64,000 bases of DNA, from NCBI GenBank assembly GCA_965207445.1, contig CBDBLX010000002.1, positions 1,175,849 through 1,239,848 on the forward strand, read 5' to 3'. Position numbers and translations under genes: made by a program. The stretch comes from Nitrosopumilus sp. (GTDB lineage: Archaea; Thermoproteota; Nitrososphaeria; Nitrososphaerales; Nitrosopumilaceae). A model generated the notes under the pieces. It had not been told where the DNA came from, did not search any database, and saw nothing but the letters and a program-made list of their open reading frames with translations. This document shows positions 6,946-61,730 of the stretch, one piece after another (within the stretch, counting starts at the first letter, position 1; every line of letters starts with the position of its first letter).

Positions 6946-7026
6946 GTAACCGTACAACTCATTCTCAAGTTTAGACACAGATTCATCGCCTAACTTCTAG
7001 TGTAGACATGGGGGTTGAACGGTTAC
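6946..7026 (+). mobile_element. 81-bp IS66-type MITE
   Basis: GTAACCGTACAAC...GTTGAACGGTTAC with family core. Confidence 0.9.
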
Positions 7027-13971: not shown

Positions 13972-16070
13972 GTAACCGTTCAACCCCCCCCCCCCCCCAC
14001 CCCAGCACAGCGTAGCAACAGATGCGGCTTTGACTTGATTATATACCCACGCACTACGTGTACGGGTAGTCTAGATCAGATCGCAAGGTCAATGCGCGAG
14101 GTTATAAGCAGATATCGACACTCATTATTACCGTGAAAAATAATGAGTGAAAATATCAATAACAATTCATCACGTGGATTGAATTTAACCAATATGGGTA
14201 CGGGAGTGTCTTGAGATGACTGTTGCAGTATATGAGACGGTAGTACTGCGCAGGGAACTGCACGAAATGGCTACGCGAATAGATAGTATTGTGGGTGTGG
14301 TGGAGTGCATGAGAGTCACAATGGACAGTATGAAGATGGACGTATTGAGTGAAAAAGCTAGGGCAGACTCAGCCATCCGGCAGAGAGATGAGGTGCACGA
14401 GCGGCTGGATGGGCAGATCAGATGTACAAAGGCTTTGGCAAGTCTACTGTCTGAAAACAACATAAAGTTTGATGAAATTGAACTAGCAGAGTCCACTCAC
14501 ACTCGCGATGAAAAGAGGGCAGAAAAGGCCGAAAAAGAACTCGATGATGAAAAAAAGCGAGGCAAGCGCACAAGCAACTCAAACACTCCCCCGTCCATGG
14601 GTAGCGATGCCCAGTCAAAGATTGCCAAATACTGCAAAAAGAATGCAGAAAACTACCTGGATGAAGAATAAATAGATGCAGGCAAGGGCAAGAAAGGCAA
14701 GACGACTGCATAATAGTTTCATTAAAGATCCGATAGTTTTCTAATATTTTGTATTCATAATATGTACTCAACTTCGAGATGAATATCAATCAAAATATCG
14801 GATCTTTAATCATATCAGTATGCACACAGATCAATCCGCAACATACTGAAAGAGGCATTCAGTACAAAGAGCACTCCGTCCAAAAAGAATACAAGGCGTC
14901 GCAAACAAAAGACAAAGGAGACATACATGCTTGAGGAGATGCCAGTAACAGACGTGTATGATTTGACCACCATTACGTGTACGAATCAGGATTGTGATGC
15001 CGAAATTAATGTAGTTACGATAACAAAAGATGTTGTGGACATACCAAAACCGGTAAGGGCCACAAAAAGGCGCATCAAATCATCGCGACACGTGCAAAAA
15101 AAGACACAGGATAGACACCACCACAAAGGGTCTGACAAAAGGCTCGTCGTTTGGTCCTCATCTCATGGCCTCGATAGTCTACATGTTCTTCTTTACGCTC
15201 AGACTTTCTTCAATTGCAGACATGTTGCGCATGTACGGCATATATTCAGTCTCAAAGACTACCATAATGGCTGCGTTGTCCGCAGTTGCAAAGGAAAAAT
15301 TTGCATCTAGGGTGGCATACATTACAGGTAGGCTAAAAGACACCCGCGTCCTGCTTGCCGATGAAACTCCAATCAGAATTGGCAAACACAGAGGGTATGC
15401 ATGGGTGCTCATCGGAGAGTACGGGATATCCATCCACATTCACCGGACCTGAGGCCAGTCGGTAGTAGATTTACACTACCCGTGTTTTGACATTCCAATT
15501 GTGGTGGATGGATATGCAGGATACAACAAATTCAAGGTCAAACAGCGCTGCTGGGCGCATGTCCTCCGTGAAGCAGAACTGCTTGCCGCCATACACGGCG
15601 GTAATCTTGAAGAACTGCACCACTGCCTCCAATCCATATTCAGCAGCGCAAAAAAGCTTCCGCCCGACATCACAGACGAGGAACTAGGGGGTGGGGGGAT
15701 AGACAACGTCGCACAGATCGCAGGCATATACAAGAGTCCCAGATATCTCACATTCGGCGGCAAGCTAGAAAATGCGGCGCCCGACCTCTTTACGTTTGTC
15801 AAATATCATGGAATGCCGCCCACAAACAACATGTCTGAGCGCACACTTAGGCCAGTCGTACTGCACAAAAAGATCTGGCTCATGTTCCAGAGTGCGATCG
15901 GTATACAGCAGACGATAGCATACTGATGACGTGTATGCTGACGTGGGATGCCCAGGGACACGACCTGATGGACAAAAATCACAAGGACATCATGTCAAAC
16001 TAACCCCATAGGCGCACTCGTATCGTTCATGAGAGTACTAGTCTGAGGTAGGAGGGGGTTGAACGGTTAC
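13972..16070 (+). mobile_element. Decayed IS66 element (single-gene ISBst12-like), transposase fragmented
   Basis: TIR GTAACCGTTCAACCCCC / GGGGGTTGAACGGTTAC; fragments NSNTPPS, ADETP, VDGYAGY, QRCWAH, TNNMSERTLR. Confidence 0.92.
14703..14820. repeat. ~118-bp hairpin element inside IS66 (second copy 29768-29888)
   Basis: ATTAAAGATCCGAT...ATCGGATCTTTAAT inverted repeat; the two copies are nearly identical. Confidence 0.8.
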
Positions 16071-29192: not shown

Positions 29193-29274
29193 GTAACCTT
29201 TCAACCCCTTTCCCAAATTTAGGCACAAATTCATTGTCTAACGTCTGGCGCAGGTACAGGGATTGAACGGTTAC
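29193..29274 (+). mobile_element. 81-bp IS66-type MITE
   Basis: GTAACCTTTCAAC...ATTGAACGGTTAC. Confidence 0.9.
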
Positions 29275-46462: not shown

Positions 46463-46543
46463 GTAACCGTTCAACCCCCATATCTGCACCAGATATTAGG
46501 CGGCGAATATGTGCCTAAATTTGGGAAGAGGTTGAACGGTTAC
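46463..46543 (-). mobile_element. 81-bp IS66-type MITE
   Basis: Perfect GTAACCGTTCAACC/GGTTGAACGGTTAC ends. Confidence 0.92.
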
Positions 46544-46590
46544 GAATAGTACATCTATAGATTTTTATAGTATGTTGGAGTCGCAGTTGT

Positions 46591-48556
46591 ATGAATATTT
46601 CATTAACTAGACATCTACGCGTCAAGCAGATCTCTGATCCCTCTCAATCTCCAATCCCCCCCCCCCCCCCATCATTCTAACGCGCAACACCGCCTTTTTA
46701 CAATAATAACCCCTCTTTTACTTGCCGGAATTATAATCACAATAGTTGCAGCCGTTCCGGCGGCTGACTGGGCCAGCGCCGGCCACGGTTATGCAGTCCC
46801 ACCAATCCCCGACGACCTGAACAGGGCGTCCGTCACGTTCACCTCGCCCTCGGGCGGCGATCCTATCAGGGGGACCATAACACTCGAGCGCAATGCCGCC
46901 AAGCAGATGAAGTTCGCGGCCGAAATACGCGAGTGTATAGTGGACCTGGGCAACGTCGGCAATATCCCTCTCCGGTCGGCTAACATGTGCGGCAACGACG
47001 CGCACGCCAGCCTGGACCCCAACGACGCGGGGCGCGACTTTTCGCGCAACGTAATCTGGACGGACTCCAACAAGAACACCGTAGCATACTACTATATCCC
47101 GACGTACAAGACGATAACCATAGAGAAGGGCGAACAGCAAGCTCACGTCACGTGGCAGACGCACAACGACGGCACGTCGAACGTGCAGTCGTTCACGGTG
47201 GCGGTCACGCCCCTCTACGAGGGCCCCGTGTACGGACACCACTGGGTGGATCCGGACAGGCCGCCGGCCGGGACGTTCATGTCCCAGCACCACTGGAAGG
47301 CGCAGATAAACGCCCAGCCGGAGCTGATAATGGTGGCAGACAGCCCCACCGACGTCACGGAGGGCGGTGAACTGCGCGTAGTGGTGCGCGCCACCCCGAC
47401 GGCGGACCCGGAGATTACGTTCAACTACCGCGTCACCGAACACAACAGCAACATTGTCCACAACAACAATGAGGGCGACAAGAGCGACCAACAAGTCGGC
47501 GGCGAACGAGGCGTACGCATCCTGACCCAAAACGACAACCAGGATGAGATCGACGGCACCGTCACGATAACGCTGCTCCCCGGCACCGGCTACACCGTGG
47601 GCACGCCTAATACAGTCACATTCACGGTGCGGGACAACGACCCAGGCCCATTGGGTAGTGGTGGCAACAGCCCTCCGACCCCGACTACAGTCTCAATTGG
47701 GCTGGCAGGCGGCAGCTCGGAGGGCGACCCCGTCTCATTTAGCATCGGCGCTTCCCCCCCGCCCCTGTTGCCTTTGCCAGTCAACGTCACCCTTTCGGGC
47801 GCCGGGAACGTGCTCAACGCATCTGATGTGGGCTGGCGCATCGTGGAGATCCCGCCGATCGGCTCGTATACATTGGAGGTTCCGACCATAAACGACGGCG
47901 TCATAGACGCCAACAATGTTACGCTCACGATAAACCCAGGCGCCGGCTACACGCTGGGACAATTTGCAAGCTGGACTGTGGACGTCCAGGACGCCGGGAC
48001 GACGTCAAGCCTGATGCAGCCGCCCGTGTACGACAAGCTCACCCAGGCGCAGAATCTGACGACAGTCGCCATAGACCCAGCGCTGGTCGCCAACGTGACC
48101 GCGATGGCGTCCCAGGTGCAGCACGGCGCAGACCATGTGGACAGGTGGAACCGCGTTCTAGCTGCCTTTGGCGAGATTGACCACTCAAACCCGATGACCG
48201 CAGCAGAGGCACAAACCAATGCAGAAAAGTACAGCAGCCCACTATGGCCGCAGATTGTCGACGTGTTGACATTGCTAGAGGCGGCGGCAGTAGTAGAACA
48301 GGACGATCCGCAGACGCCGCCTGACACGCCGCCTGCCATAGACCCTGCTCTGATCAACAGCGTCAGGGAGCTGGCGGCACAGACGCAGCACGGCGACGCG
48401 CACGTGGACAGGTGGAACCGCGTTCTAGCTGCCTTTGGTGAGATTGACCACTCAAACCCGATGACCGCAGCAGAGGCACAAACCAATGCAGAAAAGTACA
48501 GCAGCCCGCTGTGGCCGCAGATTGCAAAAGTACTAACGCAGCTTGAGTCAAGGTAA
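46591..48556 (+). CDS. Modular secreted Calx-beta-like surface protein A; start codon out of frame via C15 tract
   Basis: The 46907 frame is open upstream through signal peptide RLFTIITPLLLAGIIITIVAAVPAADWASA to the C15 at 46656-46670; ATG at 46591 is one base off; DN.DE.DGT.TITL..G.GY.VG repeats. Confidence 0.8.
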
Positions 48557-53427: not shown

Positions 53428-53508
53428 GCAACCGTTCAACCCTCATACCTGCATCAGAAATTAGACGGTGAATCTGTGCCTAAATTTGAGGAGGGGTTGA
53501 ACGGTTAC
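53428..53508 (-). mobile_element. 81-bp IS66-type MITE truncating the protease gene
   Basis: GCAACCGTTCAACC...GGTTGAACGGTTAC. Confidence 0.9.
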
Positions 53509-54110
53509 CAGAGCAGGGCCGTATTGGCTCAGGATCGGCATCCACGCCTCTAATTTCTTTGGATCTTGGGATTCCCTTTTGGCAAGGTCAAACTGGTCAA
53601 TGATGGACTGCGCGGGAACCATCTGCCTGCCCAGCTGGGTCTGGAGGACAAACTGTGGATCGATCGGCCCTATCGACGAATGCTTCCCCATCACTATCGT
53701 GTTTGCAGAGCATGCGATCATGGTCGCAGCAGACATTGCAGCCTGGGGAATAATTACGCGTATATCGTTGAATTTGGTCCGCATGTATGTAACTAACGCC
53801 TCTGCGGCCTCGATGGAGCCACCACCCCCCCCCCCCCCCCGGACTGTGAAGGATCAGGTCCAGACTCTCGCCTTTTAGCCCGTGAATCACTTCCATCAAC
53901 CCCTGTATGTCCTCGTCTGTTATGGAAAGGACCTCCGGAGTGCCGATCGGTTTCCCAGTCTGGGTCCAAGCTGTGGCGTAAAGAATTGTGTTTCTACTTG
54001 TCAGCGAAAACAGCTGGGCTAGGTATTGTCTTCTGACCTCATCAAATGGAACTGGATTAGCCTTGGACTTTGTCTGCAGTTCGGATAAGATTTTCCCCCC
54101 AAGTCGGCAT
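53509..54110 (-). pseudogene. SDH_sah/ClpP-fold serine protease, two homopolymer frameshifts, 3' truncated
   Basis: MPTWG, LDLILHSPGG, IPQAAMSAATM, SSIGPIDPQ. Confidence 0.88.
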
Positions 54111-54298
54111 TAAATCCCCTGATCGGTAGAAGTACCTGCTGAACAGTATTCTGACGGTGTCGTGTTTTCAAGATATCGCCGCGATTGCTCAAGAAGCGCG
54201 TCGTATTTCCAGTACACCTTCACCACTTCGACCAATCCAGGTTGCTTTTTGGCTTGTCTTAGCAGCTTGTCGTATTCGGCTACCTTCTTGGACTTCAT
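54110..54298 (-). CDS. Small protein translationally coupled to the protease
   Basis: 62 aa; TAATG stop/start overlap. Confidence 0.6.
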   Translation of the reverse strand: MKSKKVAEYDKLLRQAKKQPGLVEVVKVYWKYDALLEQSRRYLENTTPSEYCSAGTSTDQGI

Positions 54299-54346
54299 GT
54301 ATCAATCAATAGCGGATTGTAGCATATAAGTAATTATGCAGAAACC

Positions 54347-54429
54347 GTAACCGTTCAACTCCTTCCAAAATTTAGGCACAAATTCACCGCCTAACGTCTG
54401 GCGCAGGTAACCGGGGGTTGAACGGTTAC
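54347..54429 (+). mobile_element. 81-bp-family IS66-type MITE (83 bp)
   Basis: Perfect 13-bp TIRs. Confidence 0.92.
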
Positions 54430-54745
54430 CTGAGTTGATACATCAAATACTACAAAAGAGTCTACGGTTCTCTTGCAAACGCGGTTGATCGGTGTTTATA
54501 TGAACTTTTTATTTGAATTTGGTATTTGAGGTTGAAAAAGTGTACGTTTTTAGTACTTTTTTGTATGACTATGATGATAGTTTGGAATAAGGATAGTTAG
54601 AGTCAGTATCAAAAAGACAAACGAGGGTGGTTTATCTTGAAGAAATTAGATTGTACACCAAAAATGATAGTTTGATTTGGCATCAAAACACAAACAGATG
54701 TAGAGTGTTTGTGTATATGATGTGTAATGTACATAGTCTGGCAAT

Positions 54746-56023
54746 TCAGGCAGAGGCACGTATGGATGCGTTTTGAATGAACGTTATCCAAGCATCACAA
54801 CTATCTGCAAGATCAGAGTCTTTTACTGGTATAATGTCAATTCCAATTGCCTTGGCAGGCGTCATGTTGTTTTTGAGGCTTGTGTGTTTTCTAAAAAAGT
54901 TATGATATACTATGATCAGACGTAAGAGTCCGGGGTCCTCTGATTTTAGTCCACATACACACTTGAGTCTATCCTCAAATTCTCCATTGAGTCGTTCGTA
55001 GACGTTATTTTGATTAAAAAGATTCTGTATGTGTATATCACGTATGTGTACAAACATCGATCCAGCCCGTCTAAAGAATACTTTTCTGGCAGGCTTTATG
55101 AACTCCTGCAGTCCATCACTTACAAGTATGCGGGGTAGCCTACGCGTACGGGCAGCAGCCATTTGAAACAGGTTAGTGGGATCAGATCCCTTTTTCTTCT
55201 TGAGGATCTCGTGGGATAAAACAAATCGGCTTGCGCCATCAATCACACCAAACAAATATCTGGTCTGTTTACGTATTTTAAATTCTAGTTCGTCGACATG
55301 CCACTGAAACCATGCATCAAGACACAACAAACTTGAGAACCGTAGCATGATTCGCGAATACTCATCAGTCCACCTATGTATTGTAGATGGGTTTATGATG
55401 ATCTCATCCATTGCAAGCTGCACACATACTTCTTCTGGAGACATTTTAGTTGCCATCATGGACAACGCTTTTGCTATTACGGATGCATCAAAATGCCGCC
55501 CCTTGAACCCTTCCATTCCAGAAAATGTACGTCCACATTTTTTGCACATGTATCGCCTCACAGATCTTTTTCTCTTACACTTGCGCTCTCCCCATCCTAC
55601 CACATCTTTGGATCTGCATTTTGGATACTGACATCTCAATTTTTTGCGCCTAATCTGTATCCTTTTTCTACGCCCACACCACCACTCTTTGTCTAAGAGC
55701 TTGTATACCCCCACCACATGCTTGCATATCTTTTTTCCATTTTGATTGGCCTCACACTGACATCTCATTCCAAGTGAACTAAGAGACACCACATACAATA
55801 GACCTTGCACAGTTTGCGATGCGACTGTCCATTTAATCGAGCTTAGTGTAGTTATGGCACCTGCAATGCATGCAATCTGAATGCCTGCTTTCCTAATTGC
55901 ATCAATCTGAGCCTTGGAGCGCCTCTGCTTGCCAGGCTTTGGGCTGTCATTTTCCAATGTTTTTGATCTTGATTGAGTAGTTTCGTCTACCACCTTTTCT
56001 TCCTGAACTGTTTTTTGTTTCAT
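54746..56023 (-). CDS. IS6-like DDE transposase with SWIM and Zn-ribbon domains
   Basis: CQC...CKH, C..C/CKKC, WHVDE, VSDG, NNVYERLNG; start placed at MKQK. Confidence 0.88.
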   Translation of the reverse strand: MKQKTVQEEKVVDETTQSRSKTLENDSPKPGKQRRSKAQIDAIRKAGIQIACIAGAITTLSSIKWTVASQTVQGLLYVVSLSSLGMRCQCEANQNGKKICKHVVGVYKLLDKEWWCGRRKRIQIRRKKLRCQYPKCRSKDVVGWGERKCKRKRSVRRYMCKKCGRTFSGMEGFKGRHFDASVIAKALSMMATKMSPEEVCVQLAMDEIIINPSTIHRWTDEYSRIMLRFSSLLCLDAWFQWHVDELEFKIRKQTRYLFGVIDGASRFVLSHEILKKKKGSDPTNLFQMAAARTRRLPRILVSDGLQEFIKPARKVFFRRAGSMFVHIRDIHIQNLFNQNNVYERLNGEFEDRLKCVCGLKSEDPGLLRLIIVYHNFFRKHTSLKNNMTPAKAIGIDIIPVKDSDLADSCDAWITFIQNASIRASA

Positions 56024-56110
56024 TGTACATATATCACCAATTGGATATATAAGCATTCGTGCGTAATCCGATGTCAGAGACGTTATAACGTTGTACTGAG
56101 AACAACAAAC

Positions 56111-56284
56111 ATGACTAAATGGGCTGCCAATGCCACTGAATTCCAAGTATCCATAACCCACAACGTGAAAAGAGGTACCAGTTACTCGTACATTCCAAAG
56201 CCAGTCCTTGCCAAACTTGGTAACCCAGAGGGTTTGAAGTTTATCATACGTGGCGACAAAATACTAGTTACGTGTCCGGATTGA
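56111..56284 (+). CDS. Small AbrB/MazE-like DNA-binding protein inside IS6
   Basis: SYSYIPKPVLAKLGNPEGLKF resembles the IPK...LG swapped-hairpin pattern. Confidence 0.6.
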   Translation: MTKWAANATEFQVSITHNVKRGTSYSYIPKPVLAKLGNPEGLKFIIRGDKILVTCPD

Positions 56285-56382
56285 CTACAACGGTTCAAAT
56301 CTGTATTAATTGCCACCAACCGCGTTTGCAGGAGAACCGAGTCTACAAAGCCTTAAATTTTAGACACATGTACAAATCATAA

Positions 56383-58104: not shown

Positions 58105-58890
58105 ACACAAAAAAAGGAGAACCATATATGGAATCTACTTGCAGAAAAAACCAAAGTTCAAAAAACACAATGACACATATCCCAAAGAACAAAATATCAA
58201 CAACTAACCTAAACACATACAGTATATACAAAGACTAAGAAATTAATCTAAAACCATGTTTATGGTAATTGAAGATCCATGAGGCTACAGTCGCATATGC
58301 CAACTCTAAACATGACTCCATGTTTGTTGTTGTGCATAGAGTACTCGTACGATAAAAATCTAGATGCTGCGATATTGATACTCAAATAATAATTAATGTA
58401 ATTTCTTAGAGCAAATAAATCTCATCACTAGAATTGTTCATAATGAATGAATTTGTTGGAGATACAGATAAACAACTAGCACAAGTATTGCTACACAGAT
58501 GATAGACACTCTATGATAAATTCGAGGCCACAACACAAAAAAATGATATCATAATATGTAATTTAATAACAAGACAAATATATCAAATAATACATGGAAA
58601 ACTACATCTGATCGGTAGCAAATTTAAAGGCAAAAATATAATGGCAAATATAAAACGTATAGTATTATATGTATTAGTAAATCTATATTAATTTAAATGA
58701 AAATATGAAAATTCTACTAGTCAACACAACTCAAAAATGTACATGACGTAATTTATCCAATTTAGGGTTTTTTATATAATCAATTATATTTTGGCAAAAT
58801 TTGTAGGTTTGAATACTTGATTAACTGAATTACACAACACGTTAATATATTCGATACTTTTAATAATATGTACTTTGTAACTATGTCATA

Positions 58891-61730
58891 ATGATTATTA
58901 CGCGCCACCCACTCAACTGTATACACTCACTCGGGGGGGGGGGGGGGGGGGCAGGCAGGCAGGCAGTAATAGATCACGCACCAAACGTCGCGTTTTATTA
59001 CCTATCATACTAGCCATACTAACAGTAACAGCAATCTCACTTTTACCATCTGATCAGCAAGCCTACGCCCAGACAATAGTTGCAGTGCCTGCTGACTGGG
59101 ATTATACACCCAATGGCCTGGCAGCCGGGGACACGTTCAGACTACTGTTCTCACCATCCGAGGGCCATTCATTTACGGATACAAAGATACAGGACCTGAT
59201 TGAATCATCCAACATCTTTACGTACGGCAAGTCGACGTACTATCGTATAACCGATGATCCTACTGTTGAGTGTTATGGCTATTATGGCCAGATGGTCGGC
59301 TCAGATGTCTATTGGGATATTGTTAAAAGGAACAATAACGGTGAGGGAACTGACATAAATCGAAACGGCGTGGATTATTGTTATCATATGTATAAACGGA
59401 CGGTAAACGTTGCAAACTCAGAGCCCTCTGCGATGCGCGAGTTCTCAGAGTATTTTCGTGTACTGCATTTCGGTCACTCTGATCGCGACAGCGTCAGGAG
59501 TAACACTTACACTCAAGAAGGAGTAGACGTACCGATATACTGGCTTGGTAGCAATAGCAAGATAGCTGACAACTATAATGACTTTTACGCAGGAGACACA
59601 CCTGGCGAGTCAAGTGAAAGCCGCAACGAGCACGGCAAGTATACGCAGGCCGTTAGATACTCTTATGGCATATCTCCAATATTCAGAGTCACCGCGGAGG
59701 ATGTGCCTGCTTATGTCATACCGACTGTTACACTATCTCCATCCCGGGCTCTGGAGCAGATTGAGGGTGGACAGACTAGAACTTACATACATCTATCTAA
59801 TCCCTCACCCGTTGATATAACGGTTAGAGCTTTTGCTGTTGACTCTGGTGACTTTGTAATGTCAGTGTTTAGGCCTCATCTAAGCCCTGCTGTTTTCGAG
59901 AATTCACTTAATGCCGGTGATGTGCGAGGTAATAGAATGCAACTTATCACAGATGATGACAATGTCCATGAACCAGACGGCACTATAACGTACACTCTAC
60001 TTCCCGGGGATGGTTACATCGTAGGTGAGCCGTCGACTGTCACATTTACCATTCGAGACAACGACCCGGACCCCAACCCACCTCCACCTCCACCACCACC
60101 TCCTCCCTGCACCACAGACAAACCATGCGTCACACTGGACACATCTGGCTCTTATTTTGAGGGCCGCAAGGTGTCGATACCCATACACGTGGACCCACCG
60201 CACATCTCAGGTACTGCGCTGCAAGTAATGTTCGAGACTAGAGACAGTGGCCATATACTTGAAGCATCCGACAATACGATGCACATATTCGGTGTGCACG
60301 GCAGAGTCGACTACTTTCAGTCTGAGACGGTAAGGGATTGCAACCCCTCTGGTCAGAATTGGATAGAGTTTAGACTAAAACCCAGTAAAGACTACCAGAT
60401 ACGAGACGGCGATGAAAACTGGCAGAGGATGACACTGATTGAACACAAACCGCACCCTGACGGCCCCGTCTTGTGGCTTGACAAGAGCGTCATTGATAGC
60501 CAACTACCAGTGACAGAGGGCGACACAGTCGACCTTACTGGACTGATCAAATCAGAGTACTTGGCTTGTTCTGACATCCGTCCCGTATTACACCTGTCCG
60601 TCAATGGAGGCGTTTCGACTGATACTTCATTTACTGTTGCCCATAGCAGTGAAGCACTGATTGCACAGGGCAAAAATCAGAATCCCAGCGCCGACATCGT
60701 CACAAAGAGCAACAGCAACGACGACAACCCTGCTGGCTCCATCACAATTACACTGCAATCGGGCACCGGCTACCAGGTCGGCTCTGCAAACACCGTGACG
60801 ATCTCAGTGGCAGACAGCCCCCATGTCAATAACTCCCCGCCACCACCACCCGAGGTATCAATTGGTATATCAGGCGGTGGTTCAGAGGGTGACCACGTCT
60901 CCTTTGGCATCAACGCGTCCCCCGCACCCCAGTCTCCTTTGCCAGTCAACGTCACCCTTTCGGGCGCCGGCGGGATTCTGAACGCCTCTGATGTGGGCTG
61001 GCGCATCGTGGAGATTCCACCGATCGGCTCGTATACGCTGGAGGTCCCGACCATAGATGACGGCGTCAAAGACGTCAACAATGTTACACTCACGATAAAC
61101 CCCGGCGCCGGCTACACGCTGGGACAATTTACAAGCTGGACTGTGGACGTCCAGGACGCCGGGACGACGTCAAGTCTGATGCAGCCGCCGCCCGTGTACA
61201 ACAAACTCACACAGGCGCAGAATCTGACGGTAGTCGCCATAGACCCAGCGCTGGTCGCCAACGTGACTGCGATGGCCAACCAGACGCAGCACGGCGACGC
61301 GCATGTGGAGAGGTGGAACCGTGTACTGGCCGCGTTTGGGTACACCACGCACGACAACCCGACGACTGCAGCAGAGGCCCGCGACAACGCCGAGAAATAC
61401 AGTAGTCCGCTGTGGCCCCTGATTGCCGACGTGCTGACATTACTAGAGGCAGCAGCAGAACAAGACGGGCCGCAGACGCCACCGGACGTACCGACTGAGC
61501 CAGACGTGCCGCCTGCCATAGACCCTGCGCTGATCAACAGCGTCAGGGAGCTGGCGGCCCAGACACAGCACGGCGATGCGCACGTGGACAGATGGAACCG
61601 CGTCCTAGCTGCCTTTGGTGAGATTACCCATGACAACCCGATGACCGCAGCAGAGGCCCGCACCAACGCCGAGAAATACAGTAGCCCACTATGGCCGCAG
61701 ATTGCAGACGCGCTAGCGGCGCGCGAATAG
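58891..61730 (+). CDS. Modular secreted Calx-beta-like surface protein B; start codon out of frame via G19/(GCAG)4 tract
   Basis: The 59085 frame is open upstream through RTKRRVLLPIILAILTVTAISLLPSDQQAYAQ to G19 at 58933-58951; ATG at 58891 needs +1 base. Confidence 0.8.

Follow-up and report, generated by a model that had tools for sequence, protein, structure and literature searches.

Host-adapted bacteria rely on repeat-driven phase variation as a central means of adaptation, and nearly all studies of it concern these bacteria. In Neisseria, the repeats of opa and pilC lie in the signal-peptide region, and Campylobacter and Helicobacter also have phasomes built on simple sequence repeats (SSRs). 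The phase-variable surface genes of Neisseria include pilC, with a poly-G/C tract of 9-20, and opa, with a CTTCT pentamer; fetA has an intergenic poly-C tract of 10-14, and the phasome is made up of surface proteins, restriction-modification systems and glycosyltransferases (PMC5953494). In Bifidobacterium breve UCC2003, sortase-dependent pilus genes contain an intragenic G-tract, and replication slippage yields productive lengths (PMC9187656). Here we describe a candidate locus of this kind in an archaeon, namely gene B1 (58841-61730) in a stretch of 64,000 nucleotides (nt) from Nitrosopumilus sp., which was analysed as a whole and is called the window below. A homopolymer of 19 guanines (G19) lies in this gene between the start codon and the coding stretch of a predicted signal peptide, and we consider it likely that G19 is a slipped-strand phase-variation repeat, as in Neisseria pilC and opa.

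The likeness to pilC and opa consists in a simple repeat in the 5' coding part of the gene, in ON and OFF states that would be set by the reading frame, and in similar tract lengths; opa is alike also as a multigene family whose members switch independently (PMC5953494). B1 is unlike both in its archaeal host, in its unrelated protein family and in being known from sequence alone, and its repeat falls within an N-terminal extension of 35 residues that precedes the hydrophobic core. The B. breve genes are alike in that a G-run affects a surface structure of a non-pathogen and in that the reference genome is out of frame, but they belong to a bacterium, comprise two loci rather than a whole family, and were shown to vary by Maximum Depth Sequencing (PMC9187656), whereas the present comparison is one of contigs. 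This genome resembles bacterial phasomes in that long G/C tracts are found at surface-protein, restriction-modification and glycosyltransferase genes (PMC5953494); the differences are that the host is an archaeon, that many tracts lie in a small element and that most lie in one family. Tracts in relatives, and that of one giant gene in this genome, resemble fetA in that they precede the start codon, where they adjoin a TATA-like box. They differ from it in their archaeal TATA/B recognition element (BRE) promoter, where the variable would be the TATA-to-start distance of a probably leaderless mRNA.

For archaea, literature searches, which covered listings and passages of PMC2831843, PMC3711429, PMC11868660 and a bioRxiv preprint, returned no described repeat-driven phase-variation system. 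The first of these gives statistics on short A/T tracts in archaeal genomes (PMC2831843), and a review of 2025 leaves the distributions in archaea to later studies (PMC11868660). The preprint mentions in passing contingency loci studied in archaea; its references were not followed.

The B1 locus

The genome (G000) amounts to 2.61 Mb in two contigs, C1 and C2, with 39.6% G+C. Archaeal rRNAs and an archaeal AmoA are present, and the host is therefore an ammonia-oxidising archaeon. The parts of B1 are listed in Table 1 together with the other tracts and elements discussed below.

Table 1. Features of the B1 locus, its paralog A, and further tracts and elements. Positions refer to the window unless a contig is named.
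Feature	Position	Strand	Remarks
Putative promoter block, 31 nt	58841..58871	+	Identical in three B-type loci and in the C-type locus C2:1717821
Leader frame, 40 amino acids (aa)	58891..59013	+	ATG, 14 codons, G19, GCAG repeats, stop TAG 59011-13; assembled state
G19 homopolymer	58933..58951	+	Proposed slippage site; begins 42 nt after ATG
(GCAG)4	58951..58966	+	First G shared with last G of G19
Signal-peptide coding stretch KRRVLLPIILAILTVTAISLLPSDQQAYA	58983..59069	+	Frame +2 relative to ATG 58891
Mature protein, 886 aa plus stop	59070..61730	+	No internal stop
Paralog A	46591..48556	+	ATG 46591, C15 at 46656-46670, signal peptide and 627-codon body in frame +1
C16 (G16 on gene strand)	53825..53840	-	Inside gene for ClpP-like SDH-type serine protease
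C15	13984..13998	+	Directly after small-element end GTAACCGTTCAA; non-coding
Small-element copies in the window (and others)	46463-46545, 53428-53508, 54347-54429, 6946-7026, 29193-29274		
G12	C2:985039		5' end of N6/N4 DNA methylase, 831 aa
G15	C2:1298568-1302960 (L050)		Splits 1460-codon Mrr-ResIII-helicase-N6-methylase fusion out of frame
G16	C2:1817955		Before glycosyltransferase
C24			Before IS66 transposase

The promoter block, which was read by eye, contains a TATA-like TTTTAATAATAT at 58858-58869, centred ~27 nt upstream of ATG 58891. This spacing suggests a leaderless mRNA starting at that ATG, and the block would be an archaeal promoter of leaderless or near-leaderless mRNA. An earlier reading of the letters without database searches, here called the sequence-only reading, had proposed that translation from ATG 58891 passes through G19 to a stop at about 59011, that the signal peptide and an 881-aa body lie in another frame, and that G20, G17 or one extra GCAG would restore the frame. 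All three proposals were confirmed: the leader frame ends at the TAG given in Table 1, the signal peptide and the body are in frame +2, and by frame arithmetic a gain of 1 nt, a loss of 2 nt or the addition of one 4-nt unit brings them back into register with the ATG.

The body frame is open from 58881 to 61730, with 925 codons free of stops after the tract, and has no ATG, GTG or TTG upstream of GTG 59085; translation of the export signal would thus have to begin at the upstream ATG and would require a change of +1, -2 or +4 nt. The public call of B1, an open reading frame (ORF) of 881 aa at 59085..61730, starts after the signal peptide. The N-terminus itself resembles a signal peptide, with KRR, a 19-residue hydrophobic core VLLPIILAILTVTAISLLP and AYA, and it satisfies the simple hydrophobic-stretch rule by which signal peptides were called in this study. 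With its basic n-region, hydrophobic core and small-x-small motif, the product is predicted to be a Sec-type secreted protein. The mature protein is laid out as an N-terminal domain (~59085-59699), beta-rich repeats in the middle, and a C-terminal module (61218-61727) that consists of two ~80-aa repeats.

According to the mechanism that we propose, polymerase slippage during replication would change the length of the G-run at high frequency. At lengths of 3n+2 (11, 14, 17, 20), the ATG would be in register with the signal peptide and the 886-aa protein, which would be the ON state, and other lengths, for example the assembled 19, would end translation after 40 codons, which would be the OFF state. 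The result would be heritable and reversible states of translation, set independently for each member of the family of 12 genes described below. As 11 of these 12 genes carry a tract, a cell population would display differing subsets of the family. What the sequences show directly is the layout of the locus, its frame arithmetic, the position of tracts across the family and other genomes, the differing lengths in near-identical copies, and genes that are intact and constrained. From this we infer that switching would occur in living cells and be reversible, that ATG 58891 would act as a leaderless start, and that the protein would be exported. A long repeat, a placement from which it could switch the gene, length differences between near-identical copies and an intact gene are all found at B1, and these are features expected, at the level of DNA, of an SSR contingency locus.

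Paralogs and gene family

B1 has two close paralogs in the genome, B2 at C2:1605723 and B3 at C2:1791884, in which the same ATG precedes the tract by 42 nt. Where B1 has G19 and is out of frame, B2 has G14 and B3 has G11, and both are in frame, with proteins of 970 and 941 aa (P0187 and P0002). The tracts thus differ by 3, 5 and 8 nt, and two of these differences are not multiples of 3, although the sequences after the tract are nearly the same in the three copies (147-149 of 150 positions identical, and 575-588 of 600 with 0 gaps; flanks 98-99%).

A search of the genome with the C-terminal module returned 12 genes, of which 11 have a 5' G/C tract. They comprise ten coding-leader genes, one gene of 3743 codons and one of 816 codons, the last of which has neither a tract nor an obvious signal peptide. 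In the giant gene, a G12 (C2:863313) lies 37 nt upstream of the ATG, and here too the signal peptide is downstream of the run; given this position before the ATG of a 3743-codon gene, the idea that this G12 is the remnant of a decayed leader was rejected.

Paralog A shares the C-terminal module with B1 and is likewise out of frame as assembled, needing C14 or C17. The run on the coding strand is C in the four A-type genes and G in the six B-type genes and the giant gene, and no similarity between A and B leaders was seen on inspection of the sequences, as distinct from a formal test. Of the four A-type genes, three are out of frame (C9, C12 and C15), and the fourth, which combines C15 with another spacer, is in frame. 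Altogether, 6 or 7 of the ten coding-leader genes are out of frame, depending on the start codon chosen for C2:2347715. An RNA G-quadruplex was not retained as the common mechanism, since in A-type genes the run on the coding strand consists of C.

The genes behind these tracts are intact. None of the ten frames of 627-951 codons contains a stop, and the ratio of non-synonymous to synonymous substitution rates (dN/dS) reaches 0.41 and 0.44 when B1 is paired with its in-frame paralogs, compared to 0.39 for B2 against B3 (both ON); over all 12 pairs it ranges from 0.26 to 0.59. A pseudogene reading was rejected on the absence of stops and on these ratios.

Placement of tracts in the genome

The genome contains 39 G/C runs of 9-24 and only 3 runs of 8, so that the length distribution is bimodal. 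In the window, besides the tracts at 58933, 46656, 53825 and 13984, the longest G or C run is 7. When all runs were classified by their flanking frames, ten were found to follow a start codon and to precede a signal-peptide-like stretch at the head of a frame of 627-951 codons. In a placement test against 40000 random positions, 10 of the 39 runs of at least 9 fell at the 5' edge of a signal-peptide frame (frames of at least 300 codons), compared to 0.24 expected (P=5e-14); these ten were scored automatically, and an eleventh was assigned by hand. With a correction for paralogy, four leader types remain among 33 tracts (P=5e-5). The family tracts are confined to the zone between the promoter or start codon and the signal peptide, and none lies deeper in these genes of 630-3743 codons. 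A chance origin of the tracts was rejected on the run lengths in the window, the genome-wide bimodality and the placement test.

These results also bear on the wider claims of the sequence-only reading. It had noted a C-run at the equivalent place in a paralog, which is the C15 before the signal peptide of paralog A, and had concluded that two different repeats occupy one functional position; the division into C in A-type and G in B-type genes, with leaders that look dissimilar by eye, agrees with this. The genome-wide enrichment of runs at the 5' ends of signal-peptide genes that it had put forward as a check is borne out, and the further gene decay that it had named as contrary evidence is absent.

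Related archaea and public assemblies

A search with the N-terminal part detected the family in none of 40 other genomes that were sampled, 24 from the same genus and 16 from other families of the order. A search of the genome collection with the family alignment recovered 21 related loci elsewhere, and at 14 of these, in four Nitrosopumilaceae or Thaumarchaeota metagenome-assembled genomes (MAGs), a G/C run of 9-15 lies directly before the signal peptide. Two geometries are found. The coding-leader geometry is seen, for example, at two loci with near-identical flanks that differ in run length and frame (L059, C10, out of frame; L061, C11, in frame). In the upstream geometry, seen in the relative G057 (G057:C1), the run lies between a TATA-like box and a GTG/ATG start ~9 nt downstream. 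At L060, L062, L064-L067 and L075-L078, runs of C9-C12 lie between tttttagaa and the start, followed by the signal peptide MKTLYFAVIMAVS. This arrangement may act on leaderless mRNAs as a switch of the spacer between TATA and start.

In G057, where the count was confined to the closed main chromosome, 16 of 19 runs of at least 9 precede signal peptides (9 family leaders and 7 related frames). Another paralogous family is concerned in G017, of the same genus, where five of seven tracts precede its signal peptide; L028 and L030-L033 of this genome have G/C12-14 before the signal peptide ...ALLTVFAVLGISLALGMAETNPVAFAQ and secreted frames of ~250-520 codons. Over the five relatives sampled, 8 of 20 stretches have the signal-peptide placement (G017 5/7, G009 1/5, G052 2/2, G002 0/3 and G055 0/3). 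G000 stands out for its number of tracts: positional G12 matches come to 131, versus 0-11 in 40 same-genus genomes, 11 of which have any such match. Tracts of this kind are probably lost in fragmented assemblies.

Both reading-frame states also recur among public proteins. The public protein collection contains eight full-length B-type proteins, after exclusion of two partial members (330 and 634 aa), and four of them are called from the leader ATG (B2, B3, P0182 on a 2.32-Mb contig, and P0185) and four from an internal start after the signal peptide (B1 with 881 aa, P0183, P0186 and P0003). Truncated B-type calls occur in three assemblies besides this genome. As a warning for annotation, surface genes recorded as 'frameshifted' or N-terminally truncated in such MAGs are probably functional, the 881-aa call of B1 being an example.

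P0185 is the protein closest to the B1 product: their mature parts are 95.1% identical, rising to 99-100% within the first 300 aa, and two blocks at 77-79% identity look like exchange with other paralogs. In its leader, four glycines are followed by QAGS, compared to four or five glycines followed by RQAGS in B2 and B3. The simplest reading of this, taken from the protein rather than the DNA, is that one GCAG unit is missing and that the length of the G-run makes up for it. It suggests that a B1-like gene is in the ON state elsewhere and that the GCAG count may be variable too. When P0185 is compared with P0180, P0187 and P0002, blockwise identity is mosaic, at 99-100% versus 57-79% per 100-aa block. 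Such mosaic identity among B-type proteins suggests recombination or gene conversion between paralogs.

Evidence against switching and alternative explanations

Several observations weigh against slipped-strand switching at B1. Within-sample comparison was made on contigs of four runs (X1-X4) from one sample, with a sequence share of 0.74-0.75; nine sequencing runs, none of them an RNA run, were listed for the sequence, and the five others hold small shares of 0.06-0.11. In X1-X4, no contig of the B1 locus spans G19, and X1 and X2 have no cover at 59008-59274. The sole contig that spans the tract reads G11 and has B3-specific substitutions at 58886, 58898, 58985 and 59144. The assembled length of 19, on which the OFF state of B1 depends, may therefore be a consensus or an error. 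In the same contigs, the C16 at 53825 reads C15, C16 or C19 or coincides with a break, differences that could partly be homopolymer noise of sequencing or assembly. Furthermore, (GCAG)4 is invariant across the B1, B2 and B3 leaders in the genome, and the 11 family tracts are non-independent owing to paralogy. Finally, an expansion-biased mutation process exists without apparent function, as is seen at a small palindromic element described below: of 330 ends, 326 are followed by a C-run of 0-6 and four by one of 14-24, and for 7 of the 39 tracts the distance to such an end is no more than 40 nt.

The proposal of the sequence-only reading that expression is under selection to be switchable is accordingly strengthened by the enrichment and by the intact genes, and weakened by a (GCAG)4 that is fixed in this genome and by an OFF state that depends on an unspanned homopolymer. 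The locus offers internal controls of its own, in paralogs in both states, a rule that holds across the family, recurrence in other genomes, and the companion gene classes typical of such systems.

Among the alternatives, action at the level of RNA stands best, although we regard it as unlikely. RNA polymerase slipping on the long G-run, or ribosomes shifting frame, would yield from every allele a mix of messages in and out of frame, and the tract would set a low, graded output instead of a heritable state. In bacteria, transcriptional slippage can occur on runs as long as those found here (11-19), and the out-of-frame condition is common (6-7 of ten genes here, and 4 of 8 B-type calls), which would be tolerable if RNA slippage rescued the product. 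However, programmed recoding keeps a fixed relation between the frames, whereas the G11 and G14 copies, P0182 and P0185 are in frame by direct reading. Many of the tracts in relatives precede the start codon and so have no bearing on the frame, and the lengths differ in the DNA itself, between copies as well as between contigs.

We think it very improbable that the tracts are a neutral by-product, in which expansion-biased slippage would act on dispensable genes that tolerate the runs, with no selection for switching. The element that speaks for such a process is MITE-like (resembling miniature inverted-repeat transposable elements), ~80 bp in length, with inverted ends GTAACCGTTCAAC (17 motif matches in the window vs 0.09 expected). 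Genome-wide there are 330 ends GTAACCGTTCAA and 103 inverted pairs. The sequence-only reading had cautioned that the runs at 13984 and 53825 point to general slippage. Both runs exist (C15 and C16), the first of them non-coding and directly after an element end, and ~15 places with a tract have no obvious relation to a gene. The outlying tract number of G000 is in keeping with a neutral process, as is the result that MutS_V was not found in this genome (96% complete); the score of NucS_C stayed below its cut-off. A lack of MutS perhaps helps the neutral expansion of runs, but these two results speak for slipped-strand switching as well. The caution was thus right that tracts arise at neutral sites, but this happens at 4 of 330 element ends, compared to 11 of 12 family genes, and a neutral rate of ~1% cannot account for the latter. 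The family tracts are moreover always in the narrow zone before the signal peptide, the genes are under purifying selection and free of stops, and tracts are placed alike in other genomes and in secreted families besides this one.

The small-element end was also found upstream of an IS66-family transposase gene at C2:43262, and an IS66-family element may be the parent of the small element.

The chance is just as slim that the OFF state is an assembly artefact, with a true G20 or G17, the gene ON, and the tract serving as a stable poly-glycine spacer. All platforms miscall long homopolymers, and no independent contig spans G19. Nevertheless, sister tracts that differ by 3, 5 and 8 nt and A-type genes that are out of frame at C9, C12 and C15 do not suit a stable spacer, truncated calls come from three other assemblies, and tracts upstream of start codons cannot be coding spacers at all. 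Slipped-strand variation of G19 is instead in keeping with the length differences between contigs, which fit tract instability; these comparisons concern contigs only and do not amount to a length spectrum at G19. Besides the C16 at 53825, the single long G/C tract common to contig C1 and C2:1-120000 reads C20 in one and C24 in the other. A metagenome scan with a pattern bracketing the B-type leader returned 0 matches.

At L055 (2687-2902), in one MAG, a chain of G and C runs and an N gap lie upstream of a C-type leader. Assembly seems to have broken down at the tract here, which calls for caution with short-read MAGs.

A possible wider phasome

Beyond the secreted family, long tracts lie at the methylase, Mrr-ResIII fusion and glycosyltransferase genes of Table 1, which are candidate phase-variable genes of defence and glycosylation. 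In the protease gene, a C15 at 53825 would join an 89-codon upstream frame to the 120-codon protease frame. We see even chances that this lineage of ammonia-oxidising archaea runs a full phasome, in which about a dozen paralogous secreted proteins would vary together with restriction-modification and glycosyltransferase genes, through two tract geometries and with mosaic exchange. As part of the same reading, the geometries would be a frame switch in a coding leader and a switch of the spacer between TATA and start codon, the latter suited to leaderless archaeal mRNAs. If the phasome reading is true, surface variation of the kind known from host-adapted bacteria would exist in Archaea. If confirmed, the switching proposed for B1 would mean that ecologically important nitrifying archaea diversify their surfaces and restriction systems stochastically, implying strong fluctuating selection from viruses, hosts or grazers.

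Long repeats other than homopolymers are present as well, namely (TGGC)20 at C2:1754544, (GAGT)12 at C2:2045050, (CAAG)8 at C2:1774393 and (TTTTG)9 at C2:175912, and these may be further switch candidates.

Identity of the B1 protein

The B1 protein has no Pfam match above the cut-off and likewise none in NCBIfam; in particular, no Calx-beta, cadherin or fibronectin type III (FN3) domain exceeds the Pfam cut-off. Only distant homologues of the N-terminal domain carry PF00041, PF00028 or PF03160 (FN3, cadherin and Calx-beta proteins). An AlphaFold2 model of this domain, with a predicted local distance difference test score (pLDDT) of 66.5, had no PDB match at E<=0.001, and a protein atlas search gave no usable match. 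The C-terminal ~80-aa repeat is widespread and uncurated, with 487 cluster representatives at E<=0.001 in proteins of ~140-5100 aa. Taken with the signal peptide, the B1 product is best described as a predicted secreted multi-domain protein.

Other observations

Four of the five sequencing runs with small shares are labelled sponge metagenome, and we draw no habitat from these runs. Contig C1 (121 kb) is a second version of C2:1-120000, 98-99% identical, and is either a co-assembled strain variant or a large duplication. This second version probably explains the 5.5% 'contamination' figure of the genome. Repeats differ between the two, with TTG x7 in one and x6 in the other. In the window, contig depth at 54200-56300 is 100-1200, compared to 17-40 in the unique flanks, and an ORF at 54746-56161 (-) carries DDE/rve transposase domains; this region is therefore a multicopy insertion sequence.

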